In this document: positions 4,306 through 63,196 of the stretch, in pieces
Layout: the number at the start of each line of letters is the position of its first letter
Numbering within the stretch: position 1 is the first letter of the stretch
NCBI GenBank assembly: GCA_025544715.1
Contig: GCA_025544715.1_4109.2
Direction: 5' to 3' (one strand)
Source: Escherichia coli
Lineage (GTDB): Bacteria > Pseudomonadota > Gammaproteobacteria > Enterobacterales > Enterobacteriaceae
DNA length: 64,000 nucleotides
Notes under the pieces: generated by a model
Database searches by the model: none
What the model saw: the letters and a program-made list of their open reading frames with translations, nothing else
Told to the model about the DNA's origin: nothing
Translations under genes and position numbers: made by a program

Positions 4306-4729
4306 TTAATGGATTTAGTACCTCTTCTGGAATCAACTTTTGAACTTTAAGTATAGCTTTAATGTCATCAAATGTCAATCCACGTAGGTCGTTTAGGAGG
4401 CAGTACTGGAAGAATTTTTCTTCAGTATTTATATCGTCAATATTCATTTGGATTGATTCGTTATCATCATCATAATCATAATCTTCATTATCACAATAAT
4501 AACTTCTGAATATAACTCGTTCAAAATACACATCAAATGAATAAAAATGATTATCGATTTCATATCCAAGAAAAATATTAAAACATGTATTTAAATCTGT
4601 TGTTTCATTTAAATTTGTGTCAAAACAAAAAACTCGCACTTCACCAATATCATCTATATATTCATCTTTGAGTGACCATGTGTTGTTTTTTAATACATAG
4701 TTCACAAGTTCAACGATGTTGTATTTCAT
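4298..4729 (-). CDS. EE-FQ-S C-terminal-module family protein
   Basis: C-terminus TEEKFFQYCLLNDLRGLTFDDIKAILKVQKLI. Confidence 0.5.
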   Translation of the reverse strand: MKYNIVELVNYVLKNNTWSLKDEYIDDIGEVRVFCFDTNLNETTDLNTCFNIFLGYEIDNHFYSFDVYFERVIFRSYYCDNEDYDYDDDNESIQMNIDDINTEEKFFQYCLLNDLRGLTFDDIKAILKVQKLIPEEVLNPLND

Positions 4730-7003: not shown

Positions 7004-7069
7004 GAACCTTAGACCTCATAATATCCATTATGATATTATTTATTGTTCCAAGGTTCATAGTTAATTTGC

Positions 7070-34428: not shown

Positions 34429-34526
34429 ATTTTATATTATCCTTAAAAACTAGCACATATAATACTATTTACTACTTTTAAAAAACAACAAAAGGGGTTT
34501 GAATCAAACCCCCCAATTTAAAAGTT

Positions 34527-36790: not shown

Positions 36791-37135
36791 TTACTCCTGA
36801 TCTTTAGTTTTTGCTCGACGTGGGGCTTTCTTCTCTTCAGAAACCTCAGCTTCTTGTGATTCGGGCTTAACTTCAAAACTTTCATCATCCCATACTTCCT
36901 CAGAACTATGTTCAGTACTATGAAGTTGGTGTTCAGGGATATAATCAGGAATTTGCATTTCTCTTTCTTTTTCTTGTATCAACTCTTCACGAGTTTTGAT
37001 AATTGTTCCACCTGAACCAATTTTATCACCACGTGCGTTTAGATTAGCATTACCCAATGCTACCTGATGTTGATTTTGGTACTTGAGCATATCCATGTCA
37101 ATTGTTGTACCACGATAAGTTGTATGTTTAGACAT
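36791..37135 (-). CDS. hypothetical protein, acidic C-terminus
   Basis: 114-aa ORF. Confidence 0.45.
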   Translation of the reverse strand: MSKHTTYRGTTIDMDMLKYQNQHQVALGNANLNARGDKIGSGGTIIKTREELIQEKEREMQIPDYIPEHQLHSTEHSSEEVWDDESFEVKPESQEAEVSEEKKAPRRAKTKDQE

Positions 37136-37198
37136 ATCAAAATCCTTTTATTGTATGTGTGATATAAGCCTACAATAAACATTATATCACATGTTTTG

Positions 37199-37741
37199 CT
37201 ACCATTTCAAAAATTCATTAACATCGAGTTCGTATTTCAATGAATCTACCATGTGTAGACCAATCAAAAACAAACAGTATGATGCAACCGAGCTTCCACG
37301 CCCTAGACCCCAAAAGATCTCATTTTCTTCCATATAATCAACAAGCCATATCATACATCTTAATAGCTTTGTCATATTATAATATTCATATAAATCTAGT
37401 TCATACTCAACACGCTTTCGTGCTTCATCTGATGTACATTTTTGTAAGAAAAAGTCACGTAGATTTATATTGTCGTATACTGGATCATAACGCCAAAGTT
37501 CATGATTTTTATCATGCTCGATAGTATAATCCAGCATACGTTGTTCTAAGCCAAATTTTTTACAGTTATCATTGAATTTCAACCTTTCAGGTTCATCAAT
37601 TTCCTGCAATTGTAAGTACTGGATATCCGCACCGCAATTGATTGCATAAACTACTGCGTTAAGATTACATTTTACATCACCATTGGGACTTATAAATCTG
37701 TTTCCTTGTACTTTCATTTTTCTTTTTCTGGGCCTCTTCAT
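37199..37741 (-). CDS. hypothetical protein with a DnaE-palm-like GxGRGS segment
   Basis: C-terminal FWGLGRGSSVASYCLFLIGLHMVDSLKYELDVNEFL resembles E. coli DnaE [35 protein letters not shown] (from memory); ORF ends before the catalytic aspartates. Confidence 0.45.
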   Translation of the reverse strand: MKRPRKRKMKVQGNRFISPNGDVKCNLNAVVYAINCGADIQYLQLQEIDEPERLKFNDNCKKFGLEQRMLDYTIEHDKNHELWRYDPVYDNINLRDFFLQKCTSDEARKRVEYELDLYEYYNMTKLLRCMIWLVDYMEENEIFWGLGRGSSVASYCLFLIGLHMVDSLKYELDVNEFLKW

Positions 37742-37988
37742 TGTCAGTTAGATAAGAATCCATGTCGAAGATACATGAGTCTTCTTCATCATAAACAGAT
37801 TTTTCTTTTTGTCCTTGACGAAGTTCTAGTTCAGCATAACATTGATTTAACACAGTTTGCATATTACCAATAATCATATCACTCATACCAGCGGCACGGG
37901 CTGAAGTTATACGCATTGACTGTTCATTAATTTTCAACTGTAGTTCTTTCTCCGTCATCCCAGACGGGTCAAAAAACGGATTAAACAT
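37677..37988 (-). CDS. hypothetical protein
   Basis: 103-aa ORF. Confidence 0.4.
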   Translation of the reverse strand: MFNPFFDPSGMTEKELQLKINEQSMRITSARAAGMSDMIIGNMQTVLNQCYAELELRQGQKEKSVYDEEDSCIFDMDSYLTDNEEAQKKKNESTRKQIYKSQW

Positions 37989-37989
37989 A

Positions 37990-40383
37990 TTAACCTCCTA
38001 TGTTATTGTTTTGCAATGTAATCACAAATGTATCTGGTACATAATTTACTGATTCATGTGAAAAGTACCCGAATTCGACAGATGTGATTTCAAACTCTAG
38101 ACCTACCATTGTACCATGTTCATTATTCTGAAGTAAAGTGTTGAAAAATGCTTCACCTTTACCTGGCTGACAAAATGCGACTGGGATAATAGGCATGAAT
38201 TTTTTCTGTATACCATCTTCAATGTATGGGTGATTCATAAATCTTGGAACGGTATCAAGCATTTCATCGCTGATACTTGGTATAGCATCAACGTATAGAC
38301 CACGATTTTGTAAATCAGTTGGATCTTTTACCAAGTTTGTTGTGTCTTCACCAATAGCTTGAAAGATATTTTGACGTAGACCAAACAGTTCACCAAGCTG
38401 ACCATTATCTATTTGAGTATACATACGAGGATTTTTGGATACAGATACTAAAGAACCTTCAGGTAAAACTTCTCTATATAATAAATCATATTGCAAATTG
38501 CCTTGATTGTCAAGTGCTGATATCAATTTATAATTACCCATTACCATTTTAAATTTTCCATTTGGTATAGTAGAGCCATTTGGATTAATGATACTATTTC
38601 GTAATACTTTTTTGATATCCGAAAGATTAGTATATGGGTACGTTTGACTTAGAAAGTTTTCTTTCAATAACATCCTAGGAACTTTCTGAAGACCATACCT
38701 ATTATCAGATTGACGGAAAAAAAGTTGATTAGTAAATGATGAAGTACTGATACATTTAAACCACTCTCGCTCAAATGCAACAGACGGTAGTACATGTGCA
38801 CTCAAATAATTCTGACCGAACCCTCTTACAATCTTAAGGTTAAATATTTTCCTTGCTTCGCCACCTTCAGTACTAAATGCTTTAACATAAAACGATAGTT
38901 TAATGTCATCGTTTTCACTAAAGTCAATACTTTTGGCATATGCAGTTCCAACAAGATATCCGTCAGGTGTCAAATCTATTCCATACTTCCTAATATCATC
39001 ACCACCATCTAAAACATACGAAACCTGATTTGAACTATCAGTTTCTATTCTAGGATAGGTACTGTCTCCAAAATATTCACCAACATGTATAGTTCCTAAA
39101 TCACTATCAGTAACAAAGTTTATATTATTACCTTCTTCAGCGTTAATCAAAACCCTGAACATTTTCTGCATACCAATGATATTATCACCAAGAGTAGAGT
39201 CATAATATCCCAAATCAATCCAATCACTACTATCATAAACTGGTTTAATTGACCCATTGTCGTACTCACCACTAATCACATAGGGATATACAACGTTATC
39301 TTTTAATTGATATAAATGATTCGGTAGTGGTTTGTCTGCTATAGAATATATAGTGTCAATATCTTCAGGACAAACCCACATTTGATATGCCTTATATCTT
39401 TGATTGATAGCAAACCTTTCGCTTTCTTCTGTGTATGTACTTAATATATCAACAATTTCAACTTTGAAATATGCATCACACGCATCTGAATCATATAAAA
39501 ATGTTTGTAGTAATTGTCCATTAGGGTTAAAAACCATACCTGAATCAATTAAATTACCATTTCTATTTTGAATATTAACTTTTACTTCTTTGTTTATGCC
39601 AGAAATAGGCCATGTTGGTTGTGCTGGTTTAAATACGGCATAATCATTAGTAATATGTTTATCTGGAACTTCAGATATATCCATGTCAATCAAACGATAT
39701 GCAGGAAAGAATACACGAGGGGTAATATCGGTAGTCATGTCAGTACCGAGTATAAAAGGTCTTCTTCTCCCAAACCCTTGAACAAACAATGTACTGTTCG
39801 AACCATACTCAACATCACCAATACAATAAAGTTTTTTGTCATCACCAATCTCAACTCCAGGTGTAACCCAAACTTCCTGACTATCATATGTTATTGAAGT
39901 ATCTGTTAATCCTAAAACTCCACTTGGTGAAATATTCCCAAAATACATAACATTTACTGCTTGTAAATAAAAATTTATATTTTCAGTATTATTATATGTT
40001 CCGTCATTTTTACAATGAATTTTTATAAAATAAACATCTTCAGTATTAGTACTTGAGGATAAGTTAAATTCTGTTTTGCTAATCTTACACTTATGCTTAC
40101 CATTTACTAGTTTATTTCCAGTTGTTCCATCTGAAATAGGAATAAAACTATTTTCGTCATTACCAACATAAAAAGTATAATGTGGTTCTGGATCAAATAC
40201 AGCACCTGAACTATCCAAGCATTGTATATTAAGAATCATCTCTAAGTATTCATCTTCGTTTAATACATAGCTATCATCCGTTGTGCTTTCTTTATTGATA
40301 CTCAAACGCACAAGAATGTCTTGTCCTTCTTGTATATATCGAGCATCGGCTTTTATATCCCAACGTGGGGTAAAAGTTGTCAT
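37990..40383 (-). CDS. late-expressed large protein, probable virion component
   Basis: Track ORF 37990-40410; start moved to ATG at 40381-40383 with GGAG RBS; T4-type late promoter TATAAATA ~40 nt upstream; no enzymatic motif recognised. Confidence 0.6.
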   Translation of the reverse strand: MTTFTPRWDIKADARYIQEGQDILVRLSINKESTTDDSYVLNEDEYLEMILNIQCLDSSGAVFDPEPHYTFYVGNDENSFIPISDGTTGNKLVNGKHKCKISKTEFNLSSSTNTEDVYFIKIHCKNDGTYNNTENINFYLQAVNVMYFGNISPSGVLGLTDTSITYDSQEVWVTPGVEIGDDKKLYCIGDVEYGSNSTLFVQGFGRRRPFILGTDMTTDITPRVFFPAYRLIDMDISEVPDKHITNDYAVFKPAQPTWPISGINKEVKVNIQNRNGNLIDSGMVFNPNGQLLQTFLYDSDACDAYFKVEIVDILSTYTEESERFAINQRYKAYQMWVCPEDIDTIYSIADKPLPNHLYQLKDNVVYPYVISGEYDNGSIKPVYDSSDWIDLGYYDSTLGDNIIGMQKMFRVLINAEEGNNINFVTDSDLGTIHVGEYFGDSTYPRIETDSSNQVSYVLDGGDDIRKYGIDLTPDGYLVGTAYAKSIDFSENDDIKLSFYVKAFSTEGGEARKIFNLKIVRGFGQNYLSAHVLPSVAFEREWFKCISTSSFTNQLFFRQSDNRYGLQKVPRMLLKENFLSQTYPYTNLSDIKKVLRNSIINPNGSTIPNGKFKMVMGNYKLISALDNQGNLQYDLLYREVLPEGSLVSVSKNPRMYTQIDNGQLGELFGLRQNIFQAIGEDTTNLVKDPTDLQNRGLYVDAIPSISDEMLDTVPRFMNHPYIEDGIQKKFMPIIPVAFCQPGKGEAFFNTLLQNNEHGTMVGLEFEITSVEFGYFSHESVNYVPDTFVITLQNNNIGG

Positions 40384-40422
40384 TATAATTCTCCATAGCC
40401 AAGCTGCCATTATCTATAGATT

Positions 40423-40430
40423 ATTTATAT
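40423..40430 (-). promoter_or_regulatory. T4-type late promoter TATAAATA
   Basis: Only exact minus-strand TATAAATA in the window, directly upstream of the 797-aa gene and downstream of a terminator hairpin. Confidence 0.55.
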
Positions 40431-40447
40431 AAAGGACAAGGAAGACC

Positions 40448-40469
40448 CAGTAAGGTCTTCCATAAAATA
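40448..40469 (-). terminator. terminator hairpin
   Basis: Perfect 8-bp stem GGAAGACC/GGTCTTCC with 6-nt loop, immediately after the gp52-like gene. Confidence 0.45.
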
Positions 40470-40471
40470 TA

Positions 40472-41884
40472 TCAATTGTCTGATTTAGGAGTAAAATCAA
40501 TCTTTCTTAGTTCTTTAAGTTCAGATTTATAAATGTCCCAAATTAGGTCATGATTAGATAATAGTTCATTATACTTATCCATCAAATCAAGATTATCTTG
40601 AATATCTTGTAGTACTGATTGATAATTATCTTGTGTCCAGCGATATGATGGGAAGTTTACAATGCTTTGAATATTCTCGTCAGTTGCTTCAATTTCTGCA
40701 TTTAATGATTTAACAAATTCCACCATTTCTGCACGGTTTGCAAACCCTTTCACCTTAGCAATCATATCATTATCAAAGCATTCCTTGATTAGAATTTTGT
40801 ATCGAACCTCAGCGGCACAATCATCAAGTTTCTTTTCATAACGCTTGATGTAATACTTGAAACGAAAATCAACGAAGTCTTTAATCAAATCCATTGTTGT
40901 ATCGTAAACTTTTACTTTACCATTTTCACCAAGAACCGTTAAATGTTGAGTCATTTTTTTGTTAATACCAAAATACTCAATAACATCCATTTCTGACCAT
41001 TTAGCTGATGTACCACGAGGAAGTTTAATGGTGATATCAATTATATCAGTACTGTCATTGTCATAGTCACGAATCTCACCATCATCACTCATTTTAATGA
41101 GTTTTTCGATGAATTTCTCAATACTATAATTAGGTGGTAAACCTGTCACCTTAACCGTACTTGCATCGATTACTTCAGCTTTACCATAAAACTCATACTT
41201 ATTTTCATCCAGTTTTGTTACTACATCACTTGCCCCACATGATACATAATATGGTGTCATTTCTTTTAGTGGTTTTTTATCAATAGCACGAATACAATTA
41301 TCAATAATATCTTCAATTTTATGTGGTAGAATTGTACTCTTATACCCTACTGACATACTATCATTACCAAATAATGACAGTGGGATAATAGGTAAAAAGT
41401 GAACAGGTTCAAATGTGGTCCCGTCATAGTTCTCTTTCATTGGGATAATGTCAGCATCACGTAAAACGAGCATTTCAGTACTCTTATTCTTTTTAACATA
41501 AGTGTAACGAGCAGATGCTGGGGTACTGTTTACTTGTGTACCAAAACCACCACGTTTTCCAATAAGAGGATAGTTGTTGGCTACTGGAGATGCTAGATTC
41601 TGAAGTGTTCCAGATGCTGACGTGTCCCCATGAAGATAGATACCATCACTAATCATTTTTCCAGCACATGATACTGTTTTAATTTCCCCACTAATTTTAG
41701 ATAATGTGAAGATTGCTTTACGTTGTGAACTCTTTAGACCATCAATTCCAGGAATAGCACGGTCTAGTGTATACATCGAATATTCTAGTGATGTTGTATT
41801 CACATAATCAGAACTGTTATAATCTAGTAGAGTTAGTGTTTGGTTATCGATATTATGATTTTCTGTTTTTTTACTTTTAGCCAT
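40472..41884 (-). CDS. 52: DNA topoisomerase II medium subunit (T4 gp52-like, GyrA N-terminal homologue)
   Basis: YSMYTLDRAIPGIDGLKSSQRKAIF parallels the T4 gp52 / GyrA active-site region; 470 aa. Confidence 0.8.
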   Translation of the reverse strand: MAKSKKTENHNIDNQTLTLLDYNSSDYVNTTSLEYSMYTLDRAIPGIDGLKSSQRKAIFTLSKISGEIKTVSCAGKMISDGIYLHGDTSASGTLQNLASPVANNYPLIGKRGGFGTQVNSTPASARYTYVKKNKSTEMLVLRDADIIPMKENYDGTTFEPVHFLPIIPLSLFGNDSMSVGYKSTILPHKIEDIIDNCIRAIDKKPLKEMTPYYVSCGASDVVTKLDENKYEFYGKAEVIDASTVKVTGLPPNYSIEKFIEKLIKMSDDGEIRDYDNDSTDIIDITIKLPRGTSAKWSEMDVIEYFGINKKMTQHLTVLGENGKVKVYDTTMDLIKDFVDFRFKYYIKRYEKKLDDCAAEVRYKILIKECFDNDMIAKVKGFANRAEMVEFVKSLNAEIEATDENIQSIVNFPSYRWTQDNYQSVLQDIQDNLDLMDKYNELLSNHDLIWDIYKSELKELRKIDFTPKSDN

Positions 41885-43899: not shown

Positions 43900-43961
43900 T
43901 TGAATTCCTTATCATGTCTCTTTGTCATAAAACATTGTATCACCAATGTTTTGTTTGTCTC

Positions 43962-43994
43962 AAAAAAAAATATCGGAACGATTTGTCCCGATAT
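43962..43994 (-). terminator. rho-independent terminator
   Basis: Stem ATATCGG/CCGATAT with 11-nt loop followed on the minus strand by an 8-nt U-run. Confidence 0.5.
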
Positions 43995-44790: not shown

Positions 44791-46952
<2,162 letters not shown>

Positions 46953-48908: not shown

Positions 48909-48967
48909 AACACTTTTGATTATTTATTATTAAAAATCAAAAATATTTACGTATAACATTTAGTCTT

Positions 48968-51641: not shown

Positions 51642-51726
51642 ATTACTTCTTTCTCCATATAAACTATGTAAAACGTAAAATTGGGTAAATACTTTATAAA
51701 AATAACAATAAGATTGGAGATTAACA

Positions 51727-53164
<1,438 letters not shown>

Positions 53165-53165
53165 A

Positions 53166-54641
<1,476 letters not shown>

Positions 54642-62198: not shown

Positions 62199-63196
62199 TA
62201 ACGACCTCGCATACGATGACAGAAATCGATAATTTGATCTACCATGTCATCATTATCAGATTGTGATGTGTTTGCCATAACACTTTCATCACCATAGATA
62301 TCATCTTCTTTTTCAATATCAGAAATTGCATGTATCATTTCACCCATACCAGGTGCATGATGTGACAATGGTGATGGTGTATCAGGATTACTATCAGGCT
62401 CTAAACTGGAATTAGCCATAAGTTCACTGTTAATTTCTTGCGGAGATTTTTCTTCACGAATTGGATTATTTTGATTATCAATAGGATTAACATCACTCAA
62501 AGGAAAAACGTTCAACTCATTTGGCTTGGTCCCACTTTTAGTAATAACTAATGACTGCTCCGGTGTTTGTCCTGGGTCAACACCAACTACAGGTTCAACC
62601 GAATCGGTCCCGCTTTGTGTACCTGGAACACTAACTTTCATATTATTAGCATTTCTTTGCAACTCAGCTTGTTTCATTTTAGCTTGAGTTTGTGGATTGA
62701 CTTGTTGTTGACCCTGAGAAACATTCATTTTAGCAATTTGTTTTGCTTGTATTTGTGTGGCTTGATTTTGTAAATCTTCAAATACAATTGCTTTTAATTC
62801 TTGTGTGGTTAGTTTTGTTATATCTGAATATGTATAGTTTTTATGATACTCTTCTGCTAATTGCGTTAGTGACATTGAATCAACAATACTATGAAGTTCA
62901 GTGCTTTCATTAATATGTTTGTTAATATTTTTAGTACTAAAATAATTATAACATTCACTCATCTGTGCTTTGTATTTTTGTAAAATTTGGAATATTTCAC
63001 GATTGTCAGAATTATCAATCGCAGAATTTAAAGTGATAAAATCACCTGCATCCATATTATCAAGAATAACAGAAACATCAACATTCAAATTATGTGCATC
63101 TGCGAACTTTTGAAGTTCAGTTGCTGTTTGGTTTATATCCATAATTTCTCCATATAAAATAAAAAGACCTCTGTCTTGCTTTATGATATTTATCAC
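62198..63196 (-). CDS. hypothetical protein, Q/N/S-rich
   Basis: 332-aa ORF. Confidence 0.5.
   Translation of the reverse strand: MINIIKQDRGLFILYGEIMDINQTATELQKFADAHNLNVDVSVILDNMDAGDFITLNSAIDNSDNREIFQILQKYKAQMSECYNYFSTKNINKHINESTELHSIVDSMSLTQLAEEYHKNYTYSDITKLTTQELKAIVFEDLQNQATQIQAKQIAKMNVSQGQQQVNPQTQAKMKQAELQRNANNMKVSVPGTQSGTDSVEPVVGVDPGQTPEQSLVITKSGTKPNELNVFPLSDVNPIDNQNNPIREEKSPQEINSELMANSSLEPDSNPDTPSPLSHHAPGMGEMIHAISDIEKEDDIYGDESVMANTSQSDNDDMVDQIIDFCHRMRGR

Follow-up and report, generated by a model that had tools for sequence, protein, structure and literature searches.

A putative T4-type late promoter ahead of virion structural gene 54 in the replication module of a 121Q-like jumbo phage

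Phage T4 transcribes its late genes from promoters with TATAAATA at -10, which are read by RNA polymerase carrying gp55 and activated by gp33 together with the gp45 sliding clamp. A motif resembling this element, ATAAATA, was found by MEME before structural genes of phages CBB (35 sites) and GAP32, and CBB also encodes a gp55-like sigma factor (Buttimer et al. 2017, PMC5259590). The present analysis concerns a 64,000-nucleotide (nt) stretch of DNA filed under Escherichia coli (assembly GCA_025544715.1, contig GCA_025544715.1_4109.2; hereafter the window), and within it the counterpart of gene 54 of Escherichia phage 121Q, which lies among replication genes. An initial annotation, made from the letters alone, had placed a T4-type late promoter directly before this gene. 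That proposal has held up: the octamer is rare, biased toward upstream positions, found ahead of virion genes and conserved in relatives, and a gp55-like sigma factor is encoded by the phage.

How would such a gene be expressed? The topoisomerase II genes (gp52/gp53) would be read from a sigma70-like "middle" promoter, and their transcript would end at a hairpin at 40461-40440. Eleven bases on, TATAAATA would act as a -10-only late promoter, read by the host RNA polymerase with the gp55-like sigma factor, 121Q gp591. Transcription from about 40416 would give a leader of about 33 nt containing GGAG, followed by translation from the ATG at 40383, and the late transcript probably runs on into the overlapping genes gp55 and gp56 of 121Q. 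The product would be a 797-aa (90 kDa) virion structural protein, presumably an outer decoration, whisker or fibre-associated component, in which a non-catalytic C-terminal 2H-fold domain that has lost its catalytic histidines may serve as an anchoring or binding module. Taken as a whole (late promoter, start codon and exposed virion protein), this account is quite probably correct. The sequence elements, promoter statistics, conservation, synteny and fold come from the present analysis, while presence in virions is taken from published work on homologues.

The best megablast match of window positions 37000-41500 is 121Q itself (NC_025447, 348.5 kb), at 99.7% nucleotide identity over the 4.5 kb, and about 20 further Asteriusviruses match the same segment at about 93%. 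By this measure the window is from a 121Q-like Asteriusvirus, a Rak2-like jumbo myovirus. It corresponds approximately to the reverse complement of 121Q 17979-82726, with 98.9% identity to NC_025447 over window 20979-64000. (Window 1-20600, which holds small hypothetical open reading frames and tRNA genes, is 91-97% identical to NC_025447, with gaps.) Because of this lower, gapped identity, the source would be a 121Q relative with a mosaic early/accessory region rather than the deposited 121Q genome. Genome-wide motif statistics were taken from the whole 121Q record, and window coordinates were computed directly on the window.

The late-promoter octamer and its use across the genome

The elements at the head of gene 54, all on the minus strand, are the following, with the basis for each in brackets.

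40440..40461, minus strand: intrinsic-terminator-like hairpin, end of the topoisomerase II transcription unit (stem, folding energy, conservation)
40430-40439, minus strand: interrupted T-tract TTGTCCTTTA after the hairpin (sequence)
40422..40429, minus strand: TATAAATA, putative T4-type (gp55-type) late promoter core (exact match, genome-wide bias, conservation)
40391..40394, minus strand: Shine-Dalgarno sequence GGAG, 7 nt before the ATG at 40383 (sequence, conservation in relatives)
37990..40383, minus strand: gp54-like coding sequence, 797 aa plus stop, virion structural protein, PHROG 13911 (PHROG, RefSeq, 121Q identity)

Read along the minus strand, the stop codon of the topoisomerase II medium subunit (40472) is followed by the hairpin, TTGTCCTTTA, the octamer, 11 nt, an ATG at 40410, GGAG, 7 nt and the ATG at 40383. 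The initial annotation had described an exact octamer between hairpin and reading frame, and it is there, at 40422-40429 rather than 40423-40430. It is not the sole minus-strand copy in the window, as had been claimed, for a second lies at 4426-4433(-). With a third copy at 51976-51983(+), the window holds three, against 11.4 +/- 3.2 expected; the copies at 4426-4433 and 51976-51983 are inside open reading frames (ORFs), and the one at 40422 is the only intergenic, correctly oriented copy. A single 8-mer in so AT-rich a window proves nothing by itself. Its significance comes from the depletion and from the positional bias across the genome.

That bias was measured by comparing TATAAATA with all 55 other A5T3 8-mers in the 348.5-kb 121Q record. 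It is the rarest of the 56, with 17 copies where the others average 68 and reach at most 107, and the next-rarest mostly contain TAAATA. This rarity of TAAATA-type 8-mers amounts to a signature of avoidance, across the 121Q genome, of the late-promoter core. Eleven of the 17 copies are in the sense orientation with a gene start 10-70 nt downstream, as are 10.4% of the copies of the other permutations (binomial P ~1e-7), and among the 56 8-mers the octamer is the most strongly biased toward upstream positions. The genes that follow these 11 copies are gp54, gp199, gp201, gp499, gp586 (baseplate hub/lysozyme), gp590, gp594 (endonuclease VII), gp596 (baseplate hub), gp602 (scaffold), gp603 (major capsid protein) and gp614. 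A twelfth copy is 145 nt ahead of gp472/471. (The endonuclease VII gene is a late gene in T4.) The 7-mer ATAAATA occurs 55 times in 121Q, with 30 copies intergenic, in the sense orientation and <=160 nt upstream of a gene (28 of them within 80 nt), and it adds as targets the tail sheath, the tail tube, gp569, gp574, gp575, the 3323-aa gp582, gp597, the tail fibre gp607 and gp618, as well as many genes annotated as "virion structural protein". Several of the 121Q motif sites directly follow a hairpin and a T-run, as the gp54 site does.

The sigma factor that would read these sites is encoded outside the window. 121Q gp591 is annotated "sigma factor for late transcription" and matches phrog_234, "late sigma transcription factor" (E = 8.4e-18), and phrog_12791 (E = 2.7e-154); a Pfam search of gp591 gave no match. 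Since the octamer before gene 54 directly follows the terminator, there is no room for a conserved -35 element. From T4 geometry, transcription is predicted to start near 40416.

The hairpin agrees with what the initial annotation had seen ahead of the octamer. It reads GGAAGACC-TTAC(TG)-GGTCTTCC (GGAAGACC/GGUCUUCC arms), with nine pairs of which five are G-C, and folds at -15.2 kcal/mol (z = -3.98), none of 200 shuffles folding as well. It has the stable GC-rich stem and U-run of an intrinsic terminator, TTGTCCTTTA containing enough T for the scanner even though it is interrupted.

How widely is this arrangement kept? By tblastn, gp54 protein is found in 73 phage records, from phages of Escherichia, Klebsiella, Salmonella, Erwinia, Yersinia, Cronobacter, Serratia, Xanthomonas and Pectobacterium and from one Vibrio phage (23.5% identity). 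The gene order is constant in RaK2, GAP32, CBB, Munch, Hallingskeid, fHe-Yen9-04 and BF, and largely so in Vibrio phage 2.275.O: topoisomerase II large subunit, topoisomerase II medium subunit, gp54 homologue, small ORF, DNA polymerase III alpha (PolIII-alpha) fragment, hypothetical, GroES-like, hypothetical, clamp loader. Eight relatives, from phAPEC6 to BF, have a GC hairpin with T-run, the late motif, 14-30 nt, GGAG, 7-10 nt and the ATG. The motif itself is TATAAATA in Munch, Hallingskeid and phAPEC6, CATAAATA in GAP32 and CBB, AATAAATA in fHe-Yen9-04 and BF, and GTAAATA in RaK2, and the intergenic sequence around the conserved elements has diverged. Vibrio phage 2.275.O keeps GATAAATA, a ribosome-binding site and the ATG. 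A metagenomic homologue found by profile search (P0094, E ~1e-6) has TAATAAATA 24 nt before its ATG, and its contig keeps the downstream neighbours: small ORF, PolIII-alpha fragment, Cpn10-like gene and clamp loader.

Several points weigh against a late promoter of the T4 kind at this site. No gp33 or gp45 homologues were reported for CBB (PMC5259590), so activation, and its coupling to replication, may differ from T4. The published list of 35 CBB late promoters (Table S7), which accepts A, C or G at the first motif position and includes a site before the gp49-51 orthologues (CBB Porf_320), omits the position before the gp54 orthologue CBB_326 (PMC5259590); CATAAATA is nevertheless present there. 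Because TTGTCCTTTA is interrupted, the efficiency of termination may be limited, and transcripts from the topoisomerase promoter may run past the hairpin and express gp54 earlier too. Finally, the literature searched held no transcriptome or promoter-mapping data for Asteriusvirus or Rak2-like phages (121Q, RaK2, PA5oct, Sharanji, phAPEC6).

Carried further, these points would make the octamer a chance match in AT-rich DNA, one whose numbers in the window are no argument for it, with gp54 expressed mainly by read-through from the topoisomerase II promoter and not specifically late. Such a reading has to contend with an octamer that is the most avoided and most upstream-biased A5T3 8-mer in the genome, and with a motif retained at the orthologous site, within diverged intergenic sequence, down to about 24% protein identity. 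The hairpin is stable, and the other virion-gene islands of the window carry the same motif. A chance match is very unlikely, and late expression of gp54, suggested by these sequence features, would be the better explanation.

The start of gene 54 and its presence in virions

The minus-strand ORF at 37990..40410 encodes 806 aa counted from its first ATG. The initial annotation had moved the start from there to the ATG at 40383, on the grounds that the former lacks a ribosome-binding site and the latter has GGAG 7 nt upstream. Both observations are accurate: no purine-rich Shine-Dalgarno sequence precedes 40410, and GGAG is at 40391-40394. The octamer is 38 nt from the ATG at 40383 and 11 nt from that at 40410, other 121Q late promoters typically having 26-56 nt; at 11 nt past the motif, ATG 40410 leaves no room for a leader or a ribosome-binding site. 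The match to PHROG 13911 (E = 0, 1467.7 bits) runs from residue 10 to 805 of the 806-aa ORF against profile positions 1-788 of 789. There are 72 homologues, nearly all of about 775-816 aa, and 46 of the 47 aligned ones start with M-[A/T]-N/T-F. The lone exception, P0044, has a short extension from an upstream in-frame ATG, a gene call that runs through its own Shine-Dalgarno sequence. The equivalent start codon is annotated in phAPEC6, RaK2, GAP32, CBB, Munch, Hallingskeid, fHe-Yen9-04 and BF. The window protein is 100% identical to 121Q gp54, and RefSeq (NC_025447) already gives gene 54 as "virion structural protein", 2394 nt (797 aa), starting at window 40383. The reassigned start is therefore right, as profile, homologue starts and spacing agree, and it is not new.

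Evidence that the protein is part of the virion comes from proteomics of homologues. For phAPEC6, 9 unique peptides covering 17.1% of gp158c were identified in purified virions (PMC7247149 Table 1); gp158c shares 97% amino acid identity with the window protein, and the locus was confirmed in the phAPEC6 record. GAP32_321 and RaK2 ORF160 were likewise detected by virion mass spectrometry (PMC5259590 Suppl. S5). The initial annotation had offered a choice between a virion and an injected protein. The first is supported by these published data, and the second is now the less likely option on account of the domain types described below. No virion structure assigning a gp54 homologue was found: the phAPEC6 cryo-electron microscopy, at 10-25 A, carries no such assignment, and the paper mentions gp158 nowhere but in its mass-spectrometry table (PMC7247149).

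Could gp54 be a co-purifying contaminant or a DNA-associated protein rather than a true structural component? Its gene stands amid replication genes, and the phAPEC6 virion list also has the topoisomerase II medium subunit gp159c (2 peptides) and small subunit, a RecA-like protein, SSB and thymidylate synthase (PMC7247149). Either these replication enzymes are packaged or the preparations were partly contaminated, which bears on the weight to be given to "virion" calls by mass spectrometry. The CBB orthologue, moreover, was missed by CBB virion mass spectrometry (PMC5259590). Set against this are the independent detections in phAPEC6, GAP32 and RaK2, each from a different genus, with the number of unique peptides in phAPEC6, a putative late promoter of its own like those of bona fide virion genes, and the lack of any DNA-metabolism domain in the protein. 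It is extremely unlikely that gp54 is a contaminant.

Domain architecture of the gp54 family

Structure prediction, which the initial annotation had proposed as a check, gives tandem beta-sandwiches followed by a 2H-like domain, with no enzymatic motif. The AlphaFold2 model, built from 48 homologues, has a mean predicted local distance difference test score (pLDDT) of 85.9 and a predicted template modelling score of 0.49, as expected for beads on a string. Three regions are predicted.

39871..40383, minus strand: residues 1-171, N-terminal Calx-beta-like beta-sandwich, I-x-E-G...R-L (predicted model and motif)
38827..39870, minus strand: residues 172-519, conserved core of tandem beta-sandwich domains (pLDDT mostly >80, Foldseek)
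37993..38826, minus strand: residues 520-797, C-terminal alpha/beta domain with a 2H-phosphoesterase-like fold (predicted structure)

Foldseek against the PDB matches the sandwiches to tandem arrays in protocadherins, cadherins, the S-layer protein SbsB and adhesins. Distant homologues (P0079-P0090 and the Vibrio phage protein) begin at the equivalent of W172, without the N-terminal domain, so the Calx-beta-like domain would be a lineage-specific addition. They also carry a He_PIG immunoglobulin (Ig) domain directly before the 2H-like domain, at 25.8-65.6 bits and above the Pfam threshold, in a region that aligns to gp54 residues ~467-517 (the last sandwich being ~440-519). Some distant orthologues have CBM_5_12 (33-42 bits), in some cases as several repeats inserted in the middle region.

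A few members depart from the common architecture. In Vibrio phage 2.275.O (L017 2171-4908), an unrelated 273-aa ORF takes the place of the N-terminal domain, and GATAAATA precedes that ORF. The orthologue of Serratia phage BF (L016 2001-5030) reaches about 1009 aa through an in-frame insertion, Erwinia phages pEa_SNUABM_12/19/44/49 being listed alongside; the aligned 1023-aa metagenomic P0070 shows the BF-type insertion as a block of 226 aa that follows the position matching residue 263. A 1143-aa distant homologue with He_PIG (L018 1630-5061, metagenomic contig ERZ23491150 scaffold_4572) keeps the PolIII-alpha fragment, Cpn10-like gene and clamp loader downstream, and the gene just upstream of it (L018 1-1599) matches phrog_677, "baseplate wedge tail fiber protein connector" (E = 1.8e-34). 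This adjoining gene hints at a tail or baseplate association of the gp54 family.

The C-terminal region was matched exclusively to the 2H fold, which is bilobed and alpha+beta; the matches include phage anti-CBASS Acb1 and viral 2'-5' and cGAMP phosphodiesterases. The initial annotation had recognised no catalytic motif, and none emerged here: the fold is present, and the pair of HxT/S catalytic motifs is missing from the 2H-like domain, in which LLKEN and IPVAF are the predicted central strands. Invariant histidines are H356 (HLY), H433 (HVG) and H718 (HPY), and H756 is nearly invariant; none is part of an HxT/S motif on the predicted central strands, and H718 is N in distant homologues. For want of these motifs, the domain is called a 2H-like fold and not a 2H enzyme. 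Sequence searches agree in finding nothing closer. PDB phmmer and profile searches with gp54 found no relatives, nor did a profile search with the C-terminal domain. Pfam LigT, 2_5_RNA_ligase2, CPDase, HVSL and similar families gave no match at E up to 1 (full length) or 10 (residues 520-797, 22 members), and Pfam on gp54, 48 family members and 22 C-terminal domains returned sub-threshold noise only, DUF6656 at E = 0.0048 being below the cut-off. A profile of the C-terminal domain matched 33 proteins among 1.84 billion representatives, in most cases at the C-terminus of a longer protein or close to it. None of the 33 has an obvious HxT/S motif, which leaves no link to active cellular 2H enzymes.

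Might gp54 instead be an internal head protein, ejected with the DNA, and its 2H domain a working enzyme or ligand sponge, one that would cleave or sequester cyclic-oligonucleotide or 2'-5' signals as Acb1 does, or act in RNA-end healing? The fold matches themselves allow for this, and 121Q and phAPEC6 have an inner body whose proteins have not been identified (PMC5646251, PMC7247149). Many charged residues of the 2H-like domain are invariant (K574-E575-N576, R637-E638, D710-T711 and R714 among them), and these would also fit a non-canonical active or binding site. Both HxT/S motifs are absent, however, and no conserved histidine lies on the predicted central strands. Some 520 residues of the protein form Ig/Calx-beta/cadherin-like sandwiches, and orthologues have He_PIG and CBM5/12 domains, all of which is typical of exposed adhesin-like proteins rather than of packaged enzymes. 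Nor is I-x-E-G at residues 17-20 a T4-type propeptide cleavage site, as it falls within the folded Calx-beta-like domain. An ejected protein is very improbable. It is likewise very improbable that the 2H-fold domain, carried on or in the particle, acts at infection on nucleotide second messengers or RNA ends, whether as a non-canonical enzyme or as a "sponge" without hydrolysis; if true, gp54 would be a virion-borne relative of Acb1-type anti-defence proteins.

A capsid-targeting propeptide was also considered and rejected. I17-x-E19-G20 resembles the T4 prohead-protease site (L/I-x-E); the segment is part of the confidently folded first beta-sandwich, I-x-E-G...R-L is the usual signature of Calx-beta domains, and in distant orthologues the N-terminal domain is missing altogether.

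On the predicted architecture, gp54 is most likely an exposed, adhesin-like protein of decoration or fibre type and not an injected enzyme. Against this, He_PIG and CBM are below the Pfam threshold in gp54 itself (the best He_PIG match, in one of 48 family members, has E = 0.13), and it is from the domain types that an external location is argued. Hair-like fibres and decoration densities without an assigned protein have been described on the capsid and tail of both 121Q and phAPEC6 (PMC5646251, PMC7247149), and gp54 would be a reasonable candidate for these hair, whisker or decoration densities.

Neighbouring units and comparison with known systems

The genes and promoter-like motifs on either side of gene 54 are the following.

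37677..37988, minus strand: gp55-like 103-aa ORF, PHROG 15348; its ATG overlaps the gp54 stop codon (TAATATG)
37199..37741, minus strand: gp56-like DNA polymerase III alpha fragment, 172-180 aa, overlapping gp55 by ~65 nt
37181..37209, minus strand: TGAAATGG-N-TGATATAAT, "middle"-type promoter-like motif before the unit of gp57 and GroES-like gp58, a near-copy of CBB Porf_329
40472..41884, minus strand: topoisomerase II medium subunit (gp53-like), the upstream neighbour (PHROG/RefSeq)
43934-43963, minus strand: TGAGAC-N17-TACAAT, before the topoisomerase II large subunit, following a terminator at 43994-43970

The terminator scan found no terminator between gp54 and gp55/gp56 of 121Q, and gp55 is probably co-transcribed with gp54. 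With a terminator and putative late promoter upstream and a middle-type promoter downstream, gp54 would have a transcription unit of its own, which also holds the overlapping gp55 and gp56. In all relatives examined, the next gene after the gp54 homologue is a small ORF of 69-112 aa. (The PolIII-alpha fragment comes after that, and this too holds for every relative, down to a very distant metagenomic one.) The 103-aa gp55 product is not in the phAPEC6 virion list, and may for that reason be an assembly partner.

CBB Porf_329 is a published "promoter 2" (PMC5259590 Table S6). Motifs of the form TG[A/G]AA[C/T]-N17-TATAAT, with an extended -10 and an unusual -35, match this CBB promoter class; the one at 37181-37209(-) is before gp57, and a further one at 54565-54593(-) is before another replication-module gene. 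Intergenic [A/G]TAAATA is also found at 63187-63193(-), 48921-48927(-), 46926-46932(-), 34466-34472(-), 51685-51691(+) and 7037-7043(-), 29-83 nt upstream of ORFs. The first five precede virion-gene islands, namely the gp24/25-, gp45-, gp49-51-, gp62/63- and gp40/39-like genes, and the motif at 34466 directly follows a terminator (34514-34492) in the same layout as at gp54. Each of the small virion-gene islands in the replication module thus has a cassette of terminator and putative late promoter to itself, which would explain how structural genes scattered in this way are still expressed late.

What does this add to the existing record? The gp54 gene had already been annotated with this start codon and its product linked to virions, and for sister phages the ATAAATA promoter class is published, so that little changes for the field and the additions are modest. 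They are a quantitative, genome-wide demonstration that 121Q uses the T4 late-promoter octamer and otherwise avoids it; a gp54 promoter, missing from the published CBB list, that is conserved across the whole lineage; and the first account, at the level of the fold, of a protein family that all Rak2-like jumbo phages share, in the predicted form of Ig/Calx-beta-like sandwiches with a degenerate 2H fold.

The closest described proteins are RaK2 gp375 (ORF160), GAP32_321, CBB_326 and phAPEC6 gp158c, full-length orthologues at 43-97% identity that have the same length, start and position between topoisomerase II and the PolIII-alpha fragment; nothing material differs, and the literature searched assigns them no fold, location or function. 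Compared with the 2H superfamily (Usb1, LigT/2'-5' RNA ligase, CPDase, the AKAP18 central domain and Acb1), the gp54 domain has about 90 residues more and is joined to a long beta-sandwich array. Among virion proteins, T4 Hoc offers a general parallel. Hoc is an Ig-like decoration protein, and gp54, like it, would be a string of Ig-like sandwiches with one different terminal domain. It has no sequence or fold match to Hoc itself, and, given the connector-like gene next to one distant orthologue, gp54 could equally well be located on the tail.

The likeness to T4 is closer at the level of the promoter. The phage shares its 8-bp core with T4, needs no -35, avoids the motif in the rest of its genome and encodes a gp55-like sigma factor; as in T4, the motif lies 25-55 nt before the ATG of virion genes and also precedes the endonuclease VII gene. 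On the other hand, the functional core in Rak2-like phages appears to be shorter than that of T4, [A/C/G/T]-TAAATA. Closest of all is the "Promoter 3" (ATAAATA) of CBB and GAP32, which belongs to the same phage group, has the same motif, and likewise lies ahead of scattered structural genes.

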